The translations under genes and the position numbers were made by a program. Shown piece after piece: positions 2,077 through 25,004 of a DNA stretch of 64,000 nucleotides (position 1 is the first letter of the stretch; the number at the start of each line of letters is the position of its first letter). The DNA is from an uncultured Gammaproteobacteria bacterium (GTDB lineage: Bacteria; Patescibacteriota; Microgenomatia; UBA10105; UBA927), in the NCBI GenBank assembly GCA_964448085.1, contig CAYUUX010000003.1:5865-69864 (forward strand). Reading direction: 5' to 3'. Under the pieces are notes generated by a model. It made no database searches. It was not told where the DNA came from and saw nothing but the letters and a program-made list of their open reading frames with translations.

Positions 2077-3231
2077 TTACTGACAATCTTTTGGACAATT
2101 GCATGCATCTTCATATTGTGCGTCACATATGTTGTTCCCGCAAGGGCTACAGAGCGTGTGGGGAACACCCATTTGCTCTCTGCATATTTGAGAAAGATCC
2201 GGCGTTGACTGTTTGTCAGCTATTTTTGTAAGCCCAACGCAACAATCCATTGCTTTAATGGTAGGATTCGTTTTTCCTGTTGTCATATCAAAATTACTTA
2301 TCGCCCGTTCACCAGCACGAGCGCAGGAAGCTGGAGCCGACTCGGGAGCAGGAGAAGTATCAAAAAACTGTATCGTTGAAATGATTGAATCAAAACGATC
2401 AAACCAATCTTGGGCAAGTTGTGGTGCCTTTTGAGAAAAAAGGTCTTTGACAAAAACCTCTGGGGATTTCCAGATAAGAGCGTCACTGCAATTTTCTGTG
2501 TCCGTCGTAAAATATTGGGGCATCGCATCCGCATAGCTTCTCGGCGCAGTAAGCGTCAGAATAACTTGGTGATTATTTTTGAAAAAAATCAGTCCGCGGG
2601 TAAACCGCACATCACATACCTCAATTAACTGGAGAGAAAGATATGTTTTGCCGGAGAGAGACTGTATGGGAATCACGTTTTGCGAATTCGGATAGTTCGT
2701 GCCAAACGCTCGGGTGCCGTAATTTCCGTTTTCCAAAGCTTTTTTGTCTGCCAGAGCGGTTGTGAGATCAAATCCAAGAGGTTCGTCTTCATACTGAGCT
2801 AAGTCTTTGGTTCGTATATGTAAAACTACTGCGCGCGAGTTTTTGGTGTCCGCATTCAGCGTTATGTCATTGGGATATTGAATTTGGAACCCTAATTGTT
2901 CATCGGTATACGTATTCCAATCGGATGTAGCAGTTTCTTCTTTTTGCGTCTCTAACGTGGGTGTGGGAGCTTGTTGAATATTTGATATGTACATATTCTT
3001 TGACAAGAAGAAACCTCCAAAGAAGGTAGCGCATGGTACAAAAACACAAAGAAGTATGATAGATACTACGTTGCGCTTTGGTTTCCCAGTTGGTGAGGGA
3101 ATTTGAGATTCTGGTGGAATATCCTGTTTTGAAGAAGACGCTTGTTCTGGCTGTTGTAAGACGGGTTCTGGATACATATATGTAGGATAACATATTATTG
3201 TTTGATGTCGACAGCTCATTGTTAGAACCAT
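2077..3231 (-). CDS. Hypothetical membrane-anchored extracellular protein with a Cys-rich C-terminus; paralog-like to 1036..2016
   Basis: Pro-rich N-tail and the TM helix VVSIILLCVFVPCATFFGGFFL. Shared WNTYTDEQLGFQIQYP motif. C-terminal Cys cluster CSPCGNNICDAQYEDACNCPKDCQ. The real start may be the internal Met (MYPEP...). Confidence 0.45.
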   Translation of the reverse strand: MVLTMSCRHQTIICYPTYMYPEPVLQQPEQASSSKQDIPPESQIPSPTGKPKRNVVSIILLCVFVPCATFFGGFFLSKNMYISNIQQAPTPTLETQKEETATSDWNTYTDEQLGFQIQYPNDITLNADTKNSRAVVLHIRTKDLAQYEDEPLGFDLTTALADKKALENGNYGTRAFGTNYPNSQNVIPIQSLSGKTYLSLQLIEVCDVRFTRGLIFFKNNHQVILTLTAPRSYADAMPQYFTTDTENCSDALIWKSPEVFVKDLFSQKAPQLAQDWFDRFDSIISTIQFFDTSPAPESAPASCARAGERAISNFDMTTGKTNPTIKAMDCCVGLTKIADKQSTPDLSQICREQMGVPHTLCSPCGNNICDAQYEDACNCPKDCQ

Positions 3232-5027: not shown

Positions 5028-5831
5028 CGAAAGCAAACGTACGATGTCGGGAATTTTGCGTTCCGTTTCTTCTACACCAAGTGTAATGATTTCCTCTCCG
5101 TGAACCGCGCGCGTTATTGCAAGCGGTGTGACATGGGGCTCAAGGGGAATATCCGCAAGTTTCATATTTTCTTTTGCCAAACTGTATCGCAGGCTTGCAA
5201 TGGTAGATTTTGCAATCGTTAAAGACGAAGGGGGTGTTTTTGGAACAGGTGAAGATTTTCGGGTAAGATATGCATCACAGCTTACCGCAATAACTATATC
5301 CGCTCCCATGGAACGTACAACGGAGGCGGGAATTGGGAGAGATGCCCCGCCGTCCATAAGGTACATATCACCCAACGCCATTGGCTGAAACAGAAGCGGA
5401 ACGGAAATGCTTGCGCGGATAGCTTCCAATAGGTTACCTTTTTGTAGTATGACCGGCTCCCCTGAGGAAACATCCGTGGCCACAGCGGCAAAAGGAATTG
5501 TGAGTGATTCGATTGTGTGATGCCCGATGTGCTGTGTTAAAAATTCCATTGCCCGTTGCCCTTTGATGACTCCCGAGGAAAATGCTGCGTCTGAGAGTAC
5601 CCACGCAAGGTCACGATACCCGAAGGTGTGGGCAACTTGTTCAACTTTTTCGATGCTTCCAAGCGCGGCAAATGCACCCCCAATGAGTGCGCCGGCACTC
5701 GTTCCGGCAATCATATCAATGGGAATATGGTGAGCAAGAAGCGTTTTGATAACGCCGATATGAACAAAACCCCGAACACCACCGCTGCCAAGGGCGAGTC
5801 CAACTTTTTTTGTCGTTCGTTTTTGTCCCAT
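5019..5831 (-). CDS. Patatin-like phospholipase
   Basis: Oxyanion-hole motif GSGGVRG. Nucleophile elbow GTSAG (GxSxG). DGG catalytic Asp motif. Typical ~270-aa patatin layout. Confidence 0.75.
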   Translation of the reverse strand: MGQKRTTKKVGLALGSGGVRGFVHIGVIKTLLAHHIPIDMIAGTSAGALIGGAFAALGSIEKVEQVAHTFGYRDLAWVLSDAAFSSGVIKGQRAMEFLTQHIGHHTIESLTIPFAAVATDVSSGEPVILQKGNLLEAIRASISVPLLFQPMALGDMYLMDGGASLPIPASVVRSMGADIVIAVSCDAYLTRKSSPVPKTPPSSLTIAKSTIASLRYSLAKENMKLADIPLEPHVTPLAITRAVHGEEIITLGVEETERKIPDIVRLLSSE

Positions 5832-5886
5832 GAAGGTATTATAACAATTTGCGATAGGAGAAACGATTGGTCTATACTCAGGCTAT

Positions 5887-6375
5887 ATGAAACAGTATAT
5901 ATGGTATGTTGGCATTTTTATTGTATGTGTATTGGCAATCCGCATGCCTGTATATGGATTGGACCCAGGGCTGTTGCCTCCAAGGGATGCAATTCAAATT
6001 ACGCTACCAACGGCTACACCAACGCCCACAATAAAATTCATGATTCCGGATAAAAGCATTAGGATTTCTATTGCGCCGTTGTCAACAGCTACTCCAACAC
6101 AAACGACTGCACCGTTAACAACTACAACTGTGGCGGTAAGTCCTACTCCAGATTCATCTCTGGATGCATCAAGCGGAGCAAATGTTGAAAAAACAGAGAG
6201 TACACCATCTCCACAAGGCGAGGAAACAAAAAAAGGGGCTGTAAAAAGTATACTGAACAAGCGGGACATGGGTTTTTTTGGCATTATCGGAGCATTAGCG
6301 TTGATTATCTTGGTTATTCTTTTTTTCCCCAAAAGAAAAAAGGAATCTGACGGCATCACCGAAGAACAAACATAA
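5887..6375 (+). CDS. Hypothetical Thr/Pro-rich secreted protein with a C-terminal TM helix and basic tail
   Basis: N-terminal signal-like hydrophobic segment and a low-complexity TATPTPT region. The C-terminus is GFFGIIGALALIILVILFFPKRKKESDG (hydrophobic segment plus KRKK). Confidence 0.4.
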   Translation: MKQYIWYVGIFIVCVLAIRMPVYGLDPGLLPPRDAIQITLPTATPTPTIKFMIPDKSIRISIAPLSTATPTQTTAPLTTTTVAVSPTPDSSLDASSGANVEKTESTPSPQGEETKKGAVKSILNKRDMGFFGIIGALALIILVILFFPKRKKESDGITEEQT

Positions 6376-20563: not shown

Positions 20564-21103
20564 ATGACTATTTACACCCGAACGGGCGATAGTGGAACAA
20601 CTGCTTTGTTTGGGGGAAAGCGTGTATCAAAAGGAGATTCCAGAGTTGAGTCATATGGATCGATAGATGAGCTGAATAGCGCCCTAGGGTTACTTTTATC
20701 CTTTCTTCCCGATACGATGCGCCAAAGGAAAATTCTGCACAGCATTCAGCAAGACTTGTTTACGTGTGCATCCTGTATAGCGGGAAACAACATCAACATG
20801 GATGGCATTCAGGAACGGATCCGCGACATAGAAGAGACAATCGATGCAATGGACAAAAGCGTACCGGATTTACATAACTTTATTCTTCCCGGCGGATCCC
20901 CCGCCGGCGCATTAGCGCATGTTGTGCGGACAATATGTCGGAAGACGGAACGTATGGTTGTAAAAGAAAACACAAGAGGAAGATACGACGTGGTCGTTGC
21001 ATATCTCAATCGTGTTTCAGACTTGTTATTTGTGCTCGCAAGGTTTATAAATAAGATCGACGGTGCTAAAGAAGAATTGTGGAGGGGCAACGTCAAAATG
21101 TGA
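20564..21103 (+). CDS. pduO: ATP:cob(I)alamin adenosyltransferase, PduO type
   Basis: Signature N-terminus MTIYTRTGDSGTTALFGG and ~180 aa size. Confidence 0.85.
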   Translation: MTIYTRTGDSGTTALFGGKRVSKGDSRVESYGSIDELNSALGLLLSFLPDTMRQRKILHSIQQDLFTCASCIAGNNINMDGIQERIRDIEETIDAMDKSVPDLHNFILPGGSPAGALAHVVRTICRKTERMVVKENTRGRYDVVVAYLNRVSDLLFVLARFINKIDGAKEELWRGNVKM

Positions 21104-21104
21104 A

Positions 21105-21252
21105 TGCGCGAGGAAGACCGTGAAAATCGGTCACTGTGCCGCAACGGTAATTCTGCCTTGGCAGGACAGTCCGGAACTCTCATTCATATATCCCGAGCAG
21201 GAAAATGAAAATTGGTAGCCTTCTCGGGTACAGCGTATCGAGAAGGTTTTTT
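21105..21252 (+). promoter_or_regulatory. 5' leader with alternative antiterminator/terminator hairpins; candidate cobalamin riboswitch
   Basis: Terminator: ccttctcg (21219-21226) pairs with cgagaagg (21239-21246), then a T6 run, ending 15 nt before the RBS/ATG at 21268. An alternative stem cccgag (21192-21197) with ctcggg (21223-21228) overlaps the terminator's 5' arm. Upstream, GTGAAAATCGG ... CCGCAACGGTAA resemble cobalamin-riboswitch core motifs. Confidence 0.4.
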
Positions 21253-21267
21253 AATGGGAGATAGTGT

Positions 21268-21687
21268 ATGAAAATAAAATCGCATTTGAAGACATATTTT
21301 TTAGTTGTCTGCTGTGTTGTTCTTGGGGTTTTATTTGTGAGAAACGGTCTGCAGGGGAAACAAACGCCGCAAACAAGTGTTGAGCAGGAATCGGTTCCTG
21401 CAAGTGTTGTAACCATAAATGATGCAACGCGTATTGTAACGGGGAGGGAACAGGCAAAAACGCCGTTTGAAGCCTTGTCATTTCTGGCTAAAAAAAATAA
21501 TATTCCTGTTGTAACAAAATCATATGATTTTGGCATATTTGTCCAGTCGATAGGAGACAAAGAATCTGGGTCTGAGATGGCATGGATTTATTATGTCAAT
21601 GGAGCGGCCGGAAACGTTGCATCGGACAAATATGAATTGAAAGAAAACGATAGTGTTGAGTGGAAATATGAAAAGTCGATATATTAA
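21268..21687 (+). CDS. Secreted DUF4430-like protein (cobalamin-binding/uptake-associated family)
   Basis: Signal peptide and a ~110-aa beta-rich domain (…VEWKYE). This family typically sits beside B12 transporters and behind B12 riboswitches. The family assignment is from memory. Confidence 0.45.
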   Translation: MKIKSHLKTYFLVVCCVVLGVLFVRNGLQGKQTPQTSVEQESVPASVVTINDATRIVTGREQAKTPFEALSFLAKKNNIPVVTKSYDFGIFVQSIGDKESGSEMAWIYYVNGAAGNVASDKYELKENDSVEWKYEKSIY

Positions 21688-22210
21688 TGCAGAATTTATG
21701 GAAATTCTATTTTTTTCATTTATTGGAATCATTTCTCGCTTGGTGCCCCATCTTCCCAATATGACAACGATCGGTGCGGCTTCGGTATTTATGGGCGCAA
21801 AATTCGGAGTGAAAAAAGGAATGCTTGTGATGCTGCTTACTATGTTGATAACAGACAGTATTAAAGGATTGCATTCCGTTATGTGGGCAACCTATGGAGC
21901 TTTATTTATTGCGGTGTTGATAGGGAAATATGCGATCGGCAACCGTCGGGCCGGATGGATAATGGGGGGTACCCTGCTCTCCTCTCTCATCTTTTTTATC
22001 GTTTCCAATTTTGCCGTTTGGCTATCCCCGCATTTTATGTATCCTTTAACTCCAGATGGTTTGATGCGCTGTTATGTAATGGCTTTGCCGTTTTTTAGAA
22101 ATTCTTTGATCGGCGATGTACTTTATACGGTGATTTTCTTTGGGGTATATGATATCGTTCTCTCAATAAAAAGAAGCTATTCGTTGCAGAGACAAATCGC
22201 TAATCAGTGA
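21653..22210 (+). CDS. Small polytopic membrane protein, possible ECF-type S-component (vitamin uptake)
   Basis: ~5-6 hydrophobic helices in ~170 aa. It overlaps or abuts the DUF4430-like gene. Alternative starts are at 21668 or 21698. Confidence 0.4.
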   Translation: MLSGNMKSRYINAEFMEILFFSFIGIISRLVPHLPNMTTIGAASVFMGAKFGVKKGMLVMLLTMLITDSIKGLHSVMWATYGALFIAVLIGKYAIGNRRAGWIMGGTLLSSLIFFIVSNFAVWLSPHFMYPLTPDGLMRCYVMALPFFRNSLIGDVLYTVIFFGVYDIVLSIKRSYSLQRQIANQ

Positions 22211-22249: not shown

Positions 22250-22654
22250 ATGATTAGAAGTATGAATAACCTGCCTGATACCAGGAATAGTTCTAATACT
22301 ATAGCAACTCCGGCAAATCCAGTGGGGAGAGTAAATAAAGAATTAGAACCTTCAGCAATCGGGAACAGTGAGCCTGCAGTTAGAGATGCTGCAAAGGAAA
22401 TCGATCTTCCAAAAGAACTTACTTCATTTGGTGTCCATACGACATCAACAGTAGTACCGATACCCCCGCCGGTACAACAAATGGGAGTGATGCCTACCGG
22501 TCAAAATATTCCCAACGCCGGAATCTCCATCTCATTACCGTTGTCTGATGATCAAATAGCGCAAGGAATGCGAACGAGCGTGCTGGATTCGTTCCGTTGG
22601 TTAGCGGAGTGGTGTAAGCGGCAATTAAAACGCATCGGTATGGTAAAAGCATAA
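22250..22654 (+). CDS. Hypothetical protein (134 aa) co-transcribed with the membrane ATPase
   Basis: Stop is 1 nt before the next ATG. Pro/Ser-rich with a basic amphipathic C-terminus. No recognisable domain. Confidence 0.3.
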   Translation: MIRSMNNLPDTRNSSNTIATPANPVGRVNKELEPSAIGNSEPAVRDAAKEIDLPKELTSFGVHTTSTVVPIPPPVQQMGVMPTGQNIPNAGISISLPLSDDQIAQGMRTSVLDSFRWLAEWCKRQLKRIGMVKA

Positions 22655-22655
22655 T

Positions 22656-25004
22656 ATGCCAATAGAGACAACTGCCATTATCAGCAAACTTGAAACCTTC
22701 GGTATAAGCCTGTTTATGCTCATTCTGTTGGGTGCATTATGTCTTGGTGTTATCTATGCAATTTTTCTCCTATGGAAGTATCGGGGTCGTGAGGCACGAT
22801 CGCTTTCATATGTGTTACTGCAAATAGCCGTGCCCAGAGAAAATGAGATCAAAATCGATGCTGCGGAACAAATGTTTTCCAGTATTTACGGAATTTACAA
22901 TAATAAATGGTGGGCCTTTATCCAACCACAAGAACACATCTCTTTTGAGATTGTTGCCCGGAGGGAAGATATTCGGTTTTATGTGTCCGTTCCAAAGAAC
23001 ATCATGGATCTAGTGGAAAAACAGATCCATGGAGCATATCCCGGCGCAGATATCAAAGAAGTTGAAGAGCAGTCGATATTTTCGGAGAAAGGAAAGGTTG
23101 CATTTGCCGCTCTGCGTCTTCGGTATGGGAATCATTATCCGTTACGCACCTATCGGGATCTTCCAACTGACGCGCTGTCATCGATTACATCGGTTCTTGC
23201 CAAAATGCAGGAAGGTGAAGGAGCTGTCATCCAGGTATTAATACAACCAACAGGGGACAGATGGAAACGAACTGGCCGATCATATATAGCAAAGGTAAAA
23301 AAAGATGAGGCTAATCCAGAGAAGGCAAATTTTAAAGTGAATGCAAAATCGCTTGAAGCGATTGAACAAAAACTCCAGAAGCCCGGTTTTAATACGGTGA
23401 TCCGCTTGGTAGTGACTTCAGAAACAAAAGAACAGGCAAAAATTCACTTAAAAAATATCATAGCTTCATTTGGGCAATTTTCCTCAGATAATAATTCTTT
23501 CTGGGAAGTAAAATTTCCCATAAAACATTTATTCCTAACCGATTTTATCTATCGGTACTTTCCAATTTTCAATGTGCCCCTTCTTCGACAATTCAGCGTT
23601 TTGAATACCGATGAGTTGGCAAGCGTCTATCATTTGCCAAATAAGACCATTGAAACACCACATATTTTTTGGCTTAACGCGAAACGTGCACCGGCACCGC
23701 TGTTAATTCCGCAGTCAGGTCTTTATTTAGGTATGTCCAAATATCGAGGTGTGGAACGTCCAATATATGTAGGGGACGATGACAGAAGACGGCATATGTA
23801 TGTGATCGGTAAAACGGGAACCGGTAAATCACAACTTTTGGAAGAATTAGTGATGCAGGATATCAATTCGGGGAAAGGCGTTGCGGTGATTGATCCACAT
23901 GGAGATCTCATTTCAGGTATCTTAGCGAGAATGCCGGTTTCTCGTGCTGAAGATGTGATTTATTTCGATCCTTCGGACACGGAACGACCCATGGGATTGA
24001 ATATGCTGGAAGCAAAAACAGAAGAACAAAAACATTTCGTTGTCACTTCAATTGTCGGCCTTATGTACAAATTATACGATCCGATGAAAACCGGTATAAT
24101 CGGTCCGCGGTTTGAACATGCGATACGAAATGCCATGTTGACGGTTATGAGTGAACCCGGGAATACGTTCGTTGAGGTTGTCAGAGCATTGACGGATCAG
24201 TCGTTTGTGCAGGAGCTTCTGCCAAAAGTATCGGATCCTTTAATACGAAGGTACTGGACTGATCAGATAGCGCAAACCGCAGATTTTCATAAATCGGAAG
24301 TGCTTGATTATATTGTTTCAAAATTTGGGCGGTTTGTTACGAATAAGCTCATGCGCAACATTATAGGACAGTCATCTTCTTCGTTTGATTTTAGAAAGGT
24401 AATGGATGAGGGAAAAATATTACTGGTAAATCTTGCGAAAGGAAAATTGGGAGAAGAAAACAGTAATTTCCTCGGGCTTATTCTCGTACCGCGTATTTTG
24501 GTTGCGGCAATGAGCAGACAAGAAATTCCTGAAGCCGATAGACGAGATTTTTATCTCTATGTGGATGAATTTCAAAATTTTGCAACGCCAGATTTTGCGC
24601 AGATACTATCAGAGGCCAGAAAATATCGGTTGAATTTGATCGTTGCCAACCAATTTATTGGGCAGATGGAGGAGGAGGTTAAGAATGCTGTGTTTGGGAA
24701 CGTTGGAACCCTTGTCGCATTTCGTGTCGGAGTGACTGATGCCAATTATCTTCAGCACGAATTTCAGCCGACGTTCTCTGAATCCGATCTTATCAATATT
24801 GATAAATATAATGCCTATATTAAAACAATCGTTCATAACGAACCCGCGAAACCCTTTTCTATTGATTTGACGAAAAATATGAGACAAATAGAATCGGCGA
24901 GGAATCCGCAGATTGCAAATGCAATTATCCAGCTTTCCCGTTTAAAATATGGGCGTTCGAAGGAATTGGTTGAAGCAGAAGTGTCGGAACGCGCACGATT
25001 ATAA
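22656..25004 (+). CDS. Membrane-anchored HerA/FtsK/TraD-VirD4-superfamily P-loop ATPase (T4SS coupling-protein-like)
   Basis: N-terminal TM helix ISLFMLILLGALCLGVIYAIFLLW. Walker A GKTGTGKS. Walker B YLYVDEFQNF. ~780 aa. Confidence 0.5.
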   Translation: MPIETTAIISKLETFGISLFMLILLGALCLGVIYAIFLLWKYRGREARSLSYVLLQIAVPRENEIKIDAAEQMFSSIYGIYNNKWWAFIQPQEHISFEIVARREDIRFYVSVPKNIMDLVEKQIHGAYPGADIKEVEEQSIFSEKGKVAFAALRLRYGNHYPLRTYRDLPTDALSSITSVLAKMQEGEGAVIQVLIQPTGDRWKRTGRSYIAKVKKDEANPEKANFKVNAKSLEAIEQKLQKPGFNTVIRLVVTSETKEQAKIHLKNIIASFGQFSSDNNSFWEVKFPIKHLFLTDFIYRYFPIFNVPLLRQFSVLNTDELASVYHLPNKTIETPHIFWLNAKRAPAPLLIPQSGLYLGMSKYRGVERPIYVGDDDRRRHMYVIGKTGTGKSQLLEELVMQDINSGKGVAVIDPHGDLISGILARMPVSRAEDVIYFDPSDTERPMGLNMLEAKTEEQKHFVVTSIVGLMYKLYDPMKTGIIGPRFEHAIRNAMLTVMSEPGNTFVEVVRALTDQSFVQELLPKVSDPLIRRYWTDQIAQTADFHKSEVLDYIVSKFGRFVTNKLMRNIIGQSSSSFDFRKVMDEGKILLVNLAKGKLGEENSNFLGLILVPRILVAAMSRQEIPEADRRDFYLYVDEFQNFATPDFAQILSEARKYRLNLIVANQFIGQMEEEVKNAVFGNVGTLVAFRVGVTDANYLQHEFQPTFSESDLINIDKYNAYIKTIVHNEPAKPFSIDLTKNMRQIESARNPQIANAIIQLSRLKYGRSKELVEAEVSERARL

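Follow-up and report, generated by a model that had tools for sequence, protein, structure and literature searches.

The classes of cobalamin riboswitches are used here as previously defined (PMC7367189), and members of class II are among the described systems closest to the element reported below. The Rfam family RF01689 (AdoCbl-II), which represents env8HyCbl and the Cbl-IIa type, combines P1, P3, a P4 with the T-loop GUGAAAUUC, a P5 core of the form CUGU.CC.GCAAC.GU, a 3-bp P6 and J6/3, with neither a P2 arm nor a long extension of P6, and its model carries a 7-nt T-loop-forming bulge at J1/3. For the second type, Cbl-IIb, no structure exists to our knowledge. Cbl-IIb riboswitches, with an example from Enterococcus faecalis, bind AdoCbl and have a J1/3 that is short and mismatched, along with a short P6 hairpin (PMC7367189), and class-II members lacking the J1/3 element have also been documented (PMC6158498). 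In env8 regulation is translational, with the ribosome binding site (RBS) located in L13 (PMC5028336). The logic by which a kissing loop acts on P13, P13 on an antiterminator and the antiterminator on a terminator has been shown by mutagenesis for the repressing metE corrinoid riboswitch of Priestia megaterium, in which the core of the kissing loop pairs CCG of L5 with CGG of L13 (PMC10327014).

Here we describe an element within a 64,000-nucleotide stretch of Patescibacteria (CPR) DNA (the window, meaning the whole stretch analysed) that spans positions 21100-21252 and consists of an aptamer, a linker, a P13/L13 hairpin and a terminator; all features given coordinates below lie on the + strand. 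Our analysis indicates that this is very probably a transcription-terminating, ligand-repressed (OFF) class-II cobalamin riboswitch placed between pduO and a DUF4430-DUF6580 operon. A first-pass annotation had suggested a terminator/antiterminator attenuator at this locus, possibly a cobalamin riboswitch, beginning at 21105. Rfam E-values, a covariance model built from relatives and covariation support a cobalamin riboswitch with such a platform, and its start moves to 21100, where the 5' strand of P1 (GUGAAUG) begins.

The aptamer and its family

The aptamer comprises 88 nt (21100..21187), as determined by end-to-end alignment to RF01689, a leave-one-out covariance model and covariation. It is closed by P1 (21100-06/21181-87; 5' strand GUGAAUG, 3' strand CAUUCAU), which is followed by J1/3 (CGC, 21107-09, facing U21180) and P3 (21110-12/21177-79). 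P4 (21116-20/21128-32) is capped by the T-loop L4, UGAAAAU; P5 (21135-37/21141-43) is capped by L5, GCC(G); and P6 (21145-47/21171-73), itself 3 bp long, bears a 6-bp extension hairpin with a CUUG tetraloop (21151..21166, its pairing read from the sequence) and is followed by J6/3 GAA (21174-76). The core motifs GTGAAAATCGG (21120-21130) and CCGCAACGGTAA (21139-21150), whose resemblance to cobalamin riboswitch cores had been remarked on at first pass, do align with the conserved core of the Rfam cobalamin models. Additionally, the conserved core letters GGAA, the L4 T-loop GUGAAAAUC, CUGUGCCGCAACGGU and AGUCCGG are all present in alignments to RF01482, RF01689 and the leave-one-out model.

In the aptamer, P1 leads to P3 without an intervening P2 arm, and P6 carries one 16-nt hairpin, as in class II. 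Its architecture and core letters are the same as those of RF01689, with three differences: only CGC opposite U is found at J1/3, where seven model positions are deleted; the 16-nt hairpin forms a 19-nt insertion in L6; and L5 reads GCC rather than ACCU. Cbl-IIa is defined by a bulged J1/3 whose T-loop contacts J6/3, and as this bulge is missing here the element is not filed under that type; in modelled secondary structure it instead resembles Cbl-IIb and the class-II members without a J1/3 element. The aptamer had been thought unusually short, perhaps a minimal variant. A length of 88 nt is ordinary for class II, however, given the 81 positions of the RF01689 model, and the element is an ordinary class-II cobalamin riboswitch that scores below threshold in Rfam.

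An Rfam search of the entire 64-kb window at gathering scores, which are operational cut-offs and not structural features, returned no matches, either to the cobalamin riboswitch clan CL00101 (RF00174, RF01482 and RF01689) or to any other family. When searched by E-value threshold (20950-21350), RF01482 (AdoCbl) matched 21096-21213 with E = 8.7e-5 and a score of 34.5 bits, its cut-off being 50. On the aptamer alone (21095-21190), RF01689 scored 27.7 bits, with a cut-off of 36.5 and E = 4.6e-5. The RF01689 alignment covers all 81 model positions and reads P1 as UGAAUG/CAUUCA, departing from the model by the 19-nt L6 insertion and the seven deletions at J1/3; the RF01482 alignment drops the model's 12-bp closing helix. 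The low Rfam score is thus partly explained by the P6-extension hairpin, which is inserted relative to the model and is variable or missing in relatives (it is missing in loci L001, L016 and L015). Orthologous leaders do pass, two of them with RF01689 (L001 and L016) and two with RF00174 (L007 and L008), and the more distant family members L063 and L066 exceed the gathering score of RF01482. The Rfam check proposed with the first-pass annotation therefore gave sub-threshold matches in the window and passing matches among its orthologues.

For comparison, 80 DUF4430 loci were sampled. A family covariance model (R1), built from 12 sequences with a hand-drawn structure, detected 61 elements in 81 sources, and a second model (R2) was built from 11 relatives with the window left out. 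R2 scored 21098-21204 at 100.6 bits (E = 1.4e-24), the sole match in 64 kb, and all 24 model pairs are standard pairs in the window, with core letters matching the consensus. Across the 61 family members, 92.7% of pair cells hold standard pairs, as compared to 66.4% after shuffling, and 20 of the 24 pairs show compensatory changes on both sides; the underlying alignment (A5) was fitted to the model, so these counts lean towards the structure, and R2 serves as the unbiased test of the window. In a control, sliding the pairing partner by 1-3 columns lowered pairing to 40-50%. The closing helix varies in sequence from locus to locus (GUGAAUG/CAUUCAU, GUAAAG/CUUUAC, GUAAGG/CCUUAC, GUAUGG/CCAUAC), native P1/P3 duplexes average -9.6 kcal/mol versus -4.4 kcal/mol for swapped partners (p = 3e-21, Mann-Whitney test), and none of 53 foreign 3' flanks equals the window's own in pairing with the window 5' flank. 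Taken together, covariation backs a four-way junction of P3-P6 closed by P1/P3, and the comparison of related leaders that had been proposed as a check strongly supports the aptamer.

An ordinary intergenic terminator next to fortuitous words resembling a B12 box would offer a chance explanation for the locus, and the folding energy of the single sequence is in keeping with it, being not significant (z = -1.3 to -1.6). Both the E-value obtained with the window-excluding model and the covariation across 61 sequences refute chance resemblance, and genes related to B12 lie on both sides of the element; we consider this explanation scarcely credible.

The leaders share a common layout, in which GGAAG is followed by the P4 hairpin, (C/G)ACUGUGCCGCAAC(G/U)GU, a hairpin that varies or is missing, AGUCCGG, the 3' strand of P1, a short linker and UCCCGAGCAGGA. 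R1 detected 25 elements within 20 related loci from Patescibacteria, of which Rfam passed 12; B12 regulons are therefore under-called in these reduced genomes. The riboswitch in the window is one of many copies in this lineage that fall just below the curated Rfam cut-offs and are missed by them. The value of the element lies mainly in annotation, both of B12 regulons and of candidate importers of B12 in Patescibacteria; to mechanism it adds nothing new.

The P13/L13 hairpin, antiterminator and terminator

Downstream of P1, a 3-nt J1/13 linker (AUA, 21188..21190, from alignment A5) leads to the 12-nt regulatory hairpin P13/L13, UCC-CGAGCA-GGA (21191..21202), composed of a covarying 3-bp stem and the hexaloop CGAGCA. 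Of 57 aptamer cores, 54 are followed by a hairpin with a CG-N-GC-N hexaloop, a count pre-selected for at least two pairs, and the P13 stem covaries among UCC/GGA, GCC/GGC, CUU/AAG, UCU/AGA and CCUU/AAGG. Linkers across the family measure 2-19 nt, mostly 3-9. Regulation was lost in env8 when the linker measured 0-4 nt (PMC5028336); the linker in the window falls in that range, but P13 is much shorter here.

L5 GCCG (21138-21141) can pair with CG(A)GC of L13 to give 4 bp with one bulge. The likely register of a kissing loop is G38-C39-C40-G41 of L5 (numbered by the last digits of 211xx) with C94-G95-(A96 bulged)-G97-C98 of L13. This register agrees with the rule that one or more nucleotides of the kissing loop are always left unpaired (PMC5028336), with the CCG/CGG core of metE (PMC10327014) and with the consensus of RF01482. 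RF01482 is the best-scoring Rfam model for the window once P13 is included, and where its P13 loop reads UCGAGGcAA and its L5 CcCg, the window has CGAGCA and GCCG, with one compensatory difference. As the letters of L5 and L13 are nearly invariant in the 61 family sequences, there is no L5-L13 covariation to count, and the divergent members L061, L069, L055 and L013b are too few and too different for a kissing-loop comparison.

Four other pairings were considered and set aside. A kissing loop between CUUGG in the P6-extension loop (21158-62) and CCGAG was rejected, as the hairpin is missing in L001, L015 and L016 while CCCGAGCAGGA is kept. The P13 that RF01482 would draw (UUCAU 21183-87 with AUGAA 21205-09) uses CAUUCAU, which both covariation and the RF01689 alignment assign to the 3' strand of P1. 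An env8-like register pairing CC of L5 with GG of CAGGA is less likely, since CUCGAGCAAGA and UUCGAGCAAAGA lose the GG and CGAGC is invariant. Lastly, CCCGAG/CUCGGG was rejected as a long P13 stem, as translational relatives are without CUCGGG and it is the 3-bp P13 stem that covaries.

The leader ends in a predicted intrinsic terminator (21217..21252), a G+C-rich hairpin with a U-tract immediately 3'. As the first-pass annotation had stated, its core is a perfect 8-bp stem (ccttctcg 21219-21226 / cgagaagg 21239-21246) followed by T6 (21247-21252); with flanking and inner pairs included, the hairpin (21217-21248) reaches -15.9 kcal/mol. It had been placed 15 nt before the RBS, a distance that belongs to the start codon: the end of the U-tract is separated by 3 nt from the Shine-Dalgarno (SD) sequence GGGAG and by 15 nt from the ATG at 21268. 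A terminator scan missed the hairpin, whose 12-nt loop exceeds the scan's stated limit of 8.

The strand CCUUCUCGGG (21219..21228) is shared by two structures, as the 5' arm in the terminator and as the 3' strand in the antiterminator; the 5' strand of the latter (21192-21201) lies within P13/L13. The alternative pairing of the terminator arm with cccgag is present and proved longer than first described: 6 bp between cccgag (21192-21197) and ctcggg (21223-21228), a C/U mismatch, and 3 further bp (A21199-U21221, G21200-C21220 and G21201-C21219), so that the entire 5' arm of the terminator is covered. When the leader was folded, another of the checks proposed at first pass, nascent RNA 21188-21232 adopted the antiterminator at minimum free energy (-13.5 kcal/mol, 9 bp). 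The energy of the single sequence, as noted above, is unremarkable.

The conservation of this alternative stem could be followed across relatives. In the window, the duplex between the L13 motif and the terminator arm measures -15.6 kcal/mol, as compared to -8.3 kcal/mol for shuffled arms; in 31 terminator-bearing relatives the mean is -11.2 versus -5.9 kcal/mol, and the complementarity is individually significant at <=0.05 in 17 of these 31. Terminator arms differ between loci (CUCGG(G), CUGCUC, CCUGCUCG), and the arm tracks the motif, as in CCCGAG/CUCGGG versus UUCGAGC/GCUCGAA; where the motif is UUCGAGC, the arm is GCUCGAA or CUUGAA. The cccgag/ctcggg stem, offered at first pass as a feature that should be conserved, is thus kept in relatives, including L003 and L004, and co-varies with the L13 motif.

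The proposed mechanism follows the metE precedent, in which an L5-L13 kissing loop likewise stabilises P13 (PMC10327014). When cobalamin is bound, the L5-L13 kissing loop would form and hold P13 closed, so that the antiterminator could not form; the terminator hairpin would then fold, RNA polymerase would stop at U21247-21252, and the DUF4430-DUF6580 uptake genes would be off. Without ligand, P13 alone (-1.6 kcal/mol) would be too weak to hold, and the antiterminator would form once 21219-21228 had been made, blocking the terminator and allowing read-through into the DUF4430 gene. Ligand dependence of such a switch would come from cccgag being part of the conserved P13/L13 hairpin, which makes the kissing loop with L5 in cobalamin riboswitches. 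The two systems differ in that metE has a long P13 with internal looping, of which just the 3' side enters the antiterminator, whereas in the window the whole 3-bp P13 and its loop (10 nt) make up the antiterminator strand, and L13 has a bulged A in CG(A)GC.

The full platform of P13 plus terminator measures -17.5 kcal/mol, making the terminator state approximately 4 kcal/mol more stable than the antiterminator. Because the terminator is favoured thermodynamically, ligand-free read-through must be kinetic. The same preference would be expected if the hairpin and its U6 were simply the constitutive terminator of nrdR-nrdJ-pduO, with the aptamer a decaying or non-functional relic, a reading also in line with an aptamer score under every Rfam gathering score and with the lack of a riboswitch upstream of the DUF4430 gene in the nearest relatives (L002, L005 and L009). 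Arguing against decay, each of the 24 model pairs is intact, with core letters that equal the consensus of a model trained without the window, the loss of Rfam score comes mostly from the L6 insert and the short J1/3 and not from the core, and complementarity between the terminator arm and L13 is maintained in L003, L004 and other relatives. We therefore regard a relic as very improbable and a working switch as the far better account.

Other relatives have no terminator. In these (L001, L016, L018 and L021), CCCGAGCAGGAG lies 5-8 nt before the start codon, so that the 3' strand of P13 is itself the SD sequence, as in env8, where the RBS resides in L13; the copy in the window has a terminator instead and is the transcriptional version of a design that is translational in these relatives. 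The prevalence of translational control among close relatives also raises the question of whether a genuine cobalamin aptamer in the window controls translation, or switches expression ON, instead of working by ligand-induced termination; in a corrinoid riboswitch known to activate, the antiterminator is P13 itself (PMC10327014). In the window, however, the SD sequence (21256-60) and ATG lie 3' of the hairpin and U-tract and pair with nothing in the leader, and P13 is clear of the terminator, with the structure that excludes P13 being the one that blocks the terminator, which is a repressing layout. Repression by B12 is moreover the expected direction for an uptake operon. A translational or activating switch thus appears improbable, and ligand-induced termination remains our preferred reading.

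A 19-codon upstream open reading frame (uORF; AUG 21205 to UAG 21262-64) extends across the terminator. Neither L003 nor L004 conserves it, and it was treated as chance. By estimate, about 40% of random 19-codon stretches would be without a stop.

Ligand and gene context

The genes flanking the riboswitch are related to B12. The upstream operon carries nrdR (encoding NrdR), nrdJ, whose product is a class II ribonucleotide reductase that depends on AdoCbl (TIGR02504, 563.6 bits), and pduO (20564..21103), encoding a PduO-type ATP:cob(I)alamin adenosyltransferase (Pfam PF01923, E = 9.6e-53; TIGR00636, 171.5 bits against a cut-off of 108). AdoCbl is probably the ligand, a prediction made by analogy: NrdJ uses AdoCbl, PduO makes it, and the aptamer lacks the J1/3 T-loop and is like Cbl-IIb.

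Directly downstream, the DUF4430 gene (21268-21687; Pfam PF14478, 1.4e-13) is preceded by GGGAG (21256-60) and starts with the ATG at 21268, which together span 21256..21270, lie 3' of the terminator and are left unsequestered by its hairpin; it is overlapped by a DUF6580 gene (21653-22210; Pfam PF20221, 2.5e-40). The DUF4430 domain also occurs in the C-terminal region of transcobalamins (PMC4350170). Homologues of the DUF4430 protein are almost all from Patescibacteria/CPR (Gottesmanbacteria, Woesebacteria, Microgenomates), and the riboswitch lies directly 5' of the gene in 41 of the 80 DUF4430 loci. Neither the DUF4430 nor the DUF6580 protein matched NCBIfam, or the PDB by sequence search, and the literature searched contained nothing relevant on DUF6580 or on cobalamin riboswitches in Patescibacteria/CPR. 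The two genes form a putative B12-uptake pair, and the riboswitch points to them as the B12-uptake genes that would supply NrdJ and PduO.

A promoter scan upstream of the leader found no + strand sigma-70-like site, and the pduO stop codon UGA (21101-21103) falls within the 5' strand of P1. Given an aptamer that begins inside the stop codon and no promoter found by the scan, the riboswitch probably works as an intercistronic attenuator. The arrangement recurs in relatives: the window shares a pduO stop within P1 or J1/3 with L001, L003, L004 and L016, and in L018, L021 and L024 the stop precedes the riboswitch model by 2-4 nt. With the stop codon in P1 or J1/3, a terminating ribosome would cover P1/P3, and the aptamer would fold only after its departure. 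A broader proposal, to which we assign a small chance, is that upstream translation gates B12 sensing, making the element an intercistronic attenuator by which B12 use (nrdJ, pduO) is uncoupled from uptake in a functionally distinct Patescibacteria sub-lineage, with DUF4430-DUF6580 as an undescribed B12 importer. The traits that would mark this sub-lineage are the missing J1/3 T-loop, an invariant UGCCG in L5 and the CGAGCA hexaloop on a 3-bp P13.

The pduO-riboswitch junction

In the window and four related DUF4430 loci, the stop codon of pduO lies inside the riboswitch itself, within P1 or J1/3; the positions concerned are 21098-21112 in the window, 2888-2902 in L001, 2784-2796 in L003, 2777-2790 in L004 and 2893-2898 in L016. 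A slightly looser arrangement is found in L018, L021 and L024, where the pduO stop codon falls 2-4 nt upstream of the start of the riboswitch model match. The junction leaves no intergenic room for a promoter, and a ribosome terminating at the pduO stop would cover P1/P3 of the riboswitch. Among the remaining clades, only L063 and L072 have a long upstream ORF that stops 30 nt or less before the riboswitch begins; the distance there is 29-30 nt.

Leader riboswitch turnover and a second copy

Three of the closest relatives (L002, L005 and L009; protein identity 47-59%) have a DUF4430 gene with no riboswitch before it (upstream of position 3001), and in L002 pduO continues directly into the DUF4430 gene. 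Because it is absent from some of the closest relatives, the leader riboswitch has been gained or lost among close lineages. A further copy of the same riboswitch is found 3' of the DUF6580 gene in 12 loci, including L001 (3939-4028), L002 (3953-4058), L003 (3950-4059), L004 (3947-4101), L005 (3913-4061) and L009 (3751-3864). In L001-L004, this second copy is followed by a gene whose protein begins MYCVPEKEISL (542 aa in L001), an uncharacterised protein without a Pfam match that is predicted to be under B12 control via the second riboswitch. The window contains neither the second riboswitch nor the MYCVPEKEISL gene (tblastn, zero matches).

Variable inserts in the aptamer

The L4 T-loop normally docks with L6. 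In several family members, a hairpin of 20-35 nt is inserted into this loop between GUG and AAUUC: L003 (2797-2927), L004 (2791-2921 and 3960-4096), L005 (3928-4056), L009 (3765-3859), L015 (4224-4340), L022, L036, L048 and L059. The L4 of the window riboswitch is a plain 7-nt loop with no insert. The P6 extension of several relatives is a recurring CCUGAG...UUGUCGAAGG module (L003, in both copies; L004 2791-2921; L058; L013), possibly k-turn-like with tandem G-A pairs.

The window leader also contains a 19-codon uORF (MKIGSLLGYSVSRRFFNGR, 21205-21264) that begins directly after L13, the loop of the regulatory hairpin, crosses the terminator and stops 3 nt upstream of the ATG of the DUF4430 gene. 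This reading frame shows no conservation in L003 or L004, and it has probably arisen by chance.

DUF6580 and the downstream genes

DUF6580 (185 aa; window 21653-22210) is paired with DUF4430 in every locus inspected, and searches of the literature, NCBIfam and PDB returned zero matches for it. The next gene encodes a 134-aa protein (22250-22654) that has no Pfam match but has a conserved counterpart in L001, at 5676-6080. Downstream of this gene, the window encodes a TraG/VirD4-like ATPase (22656-25004). Short contigs from three sequencing runs (L081-L083; Logan assemblies SRR22184566, SRR22184563 and SRR22184545) carry nrdJ, pduO, DUF4430, DUF6580 and the 134-aa gene in the same order as the window, with an identical DUF4430 protein.
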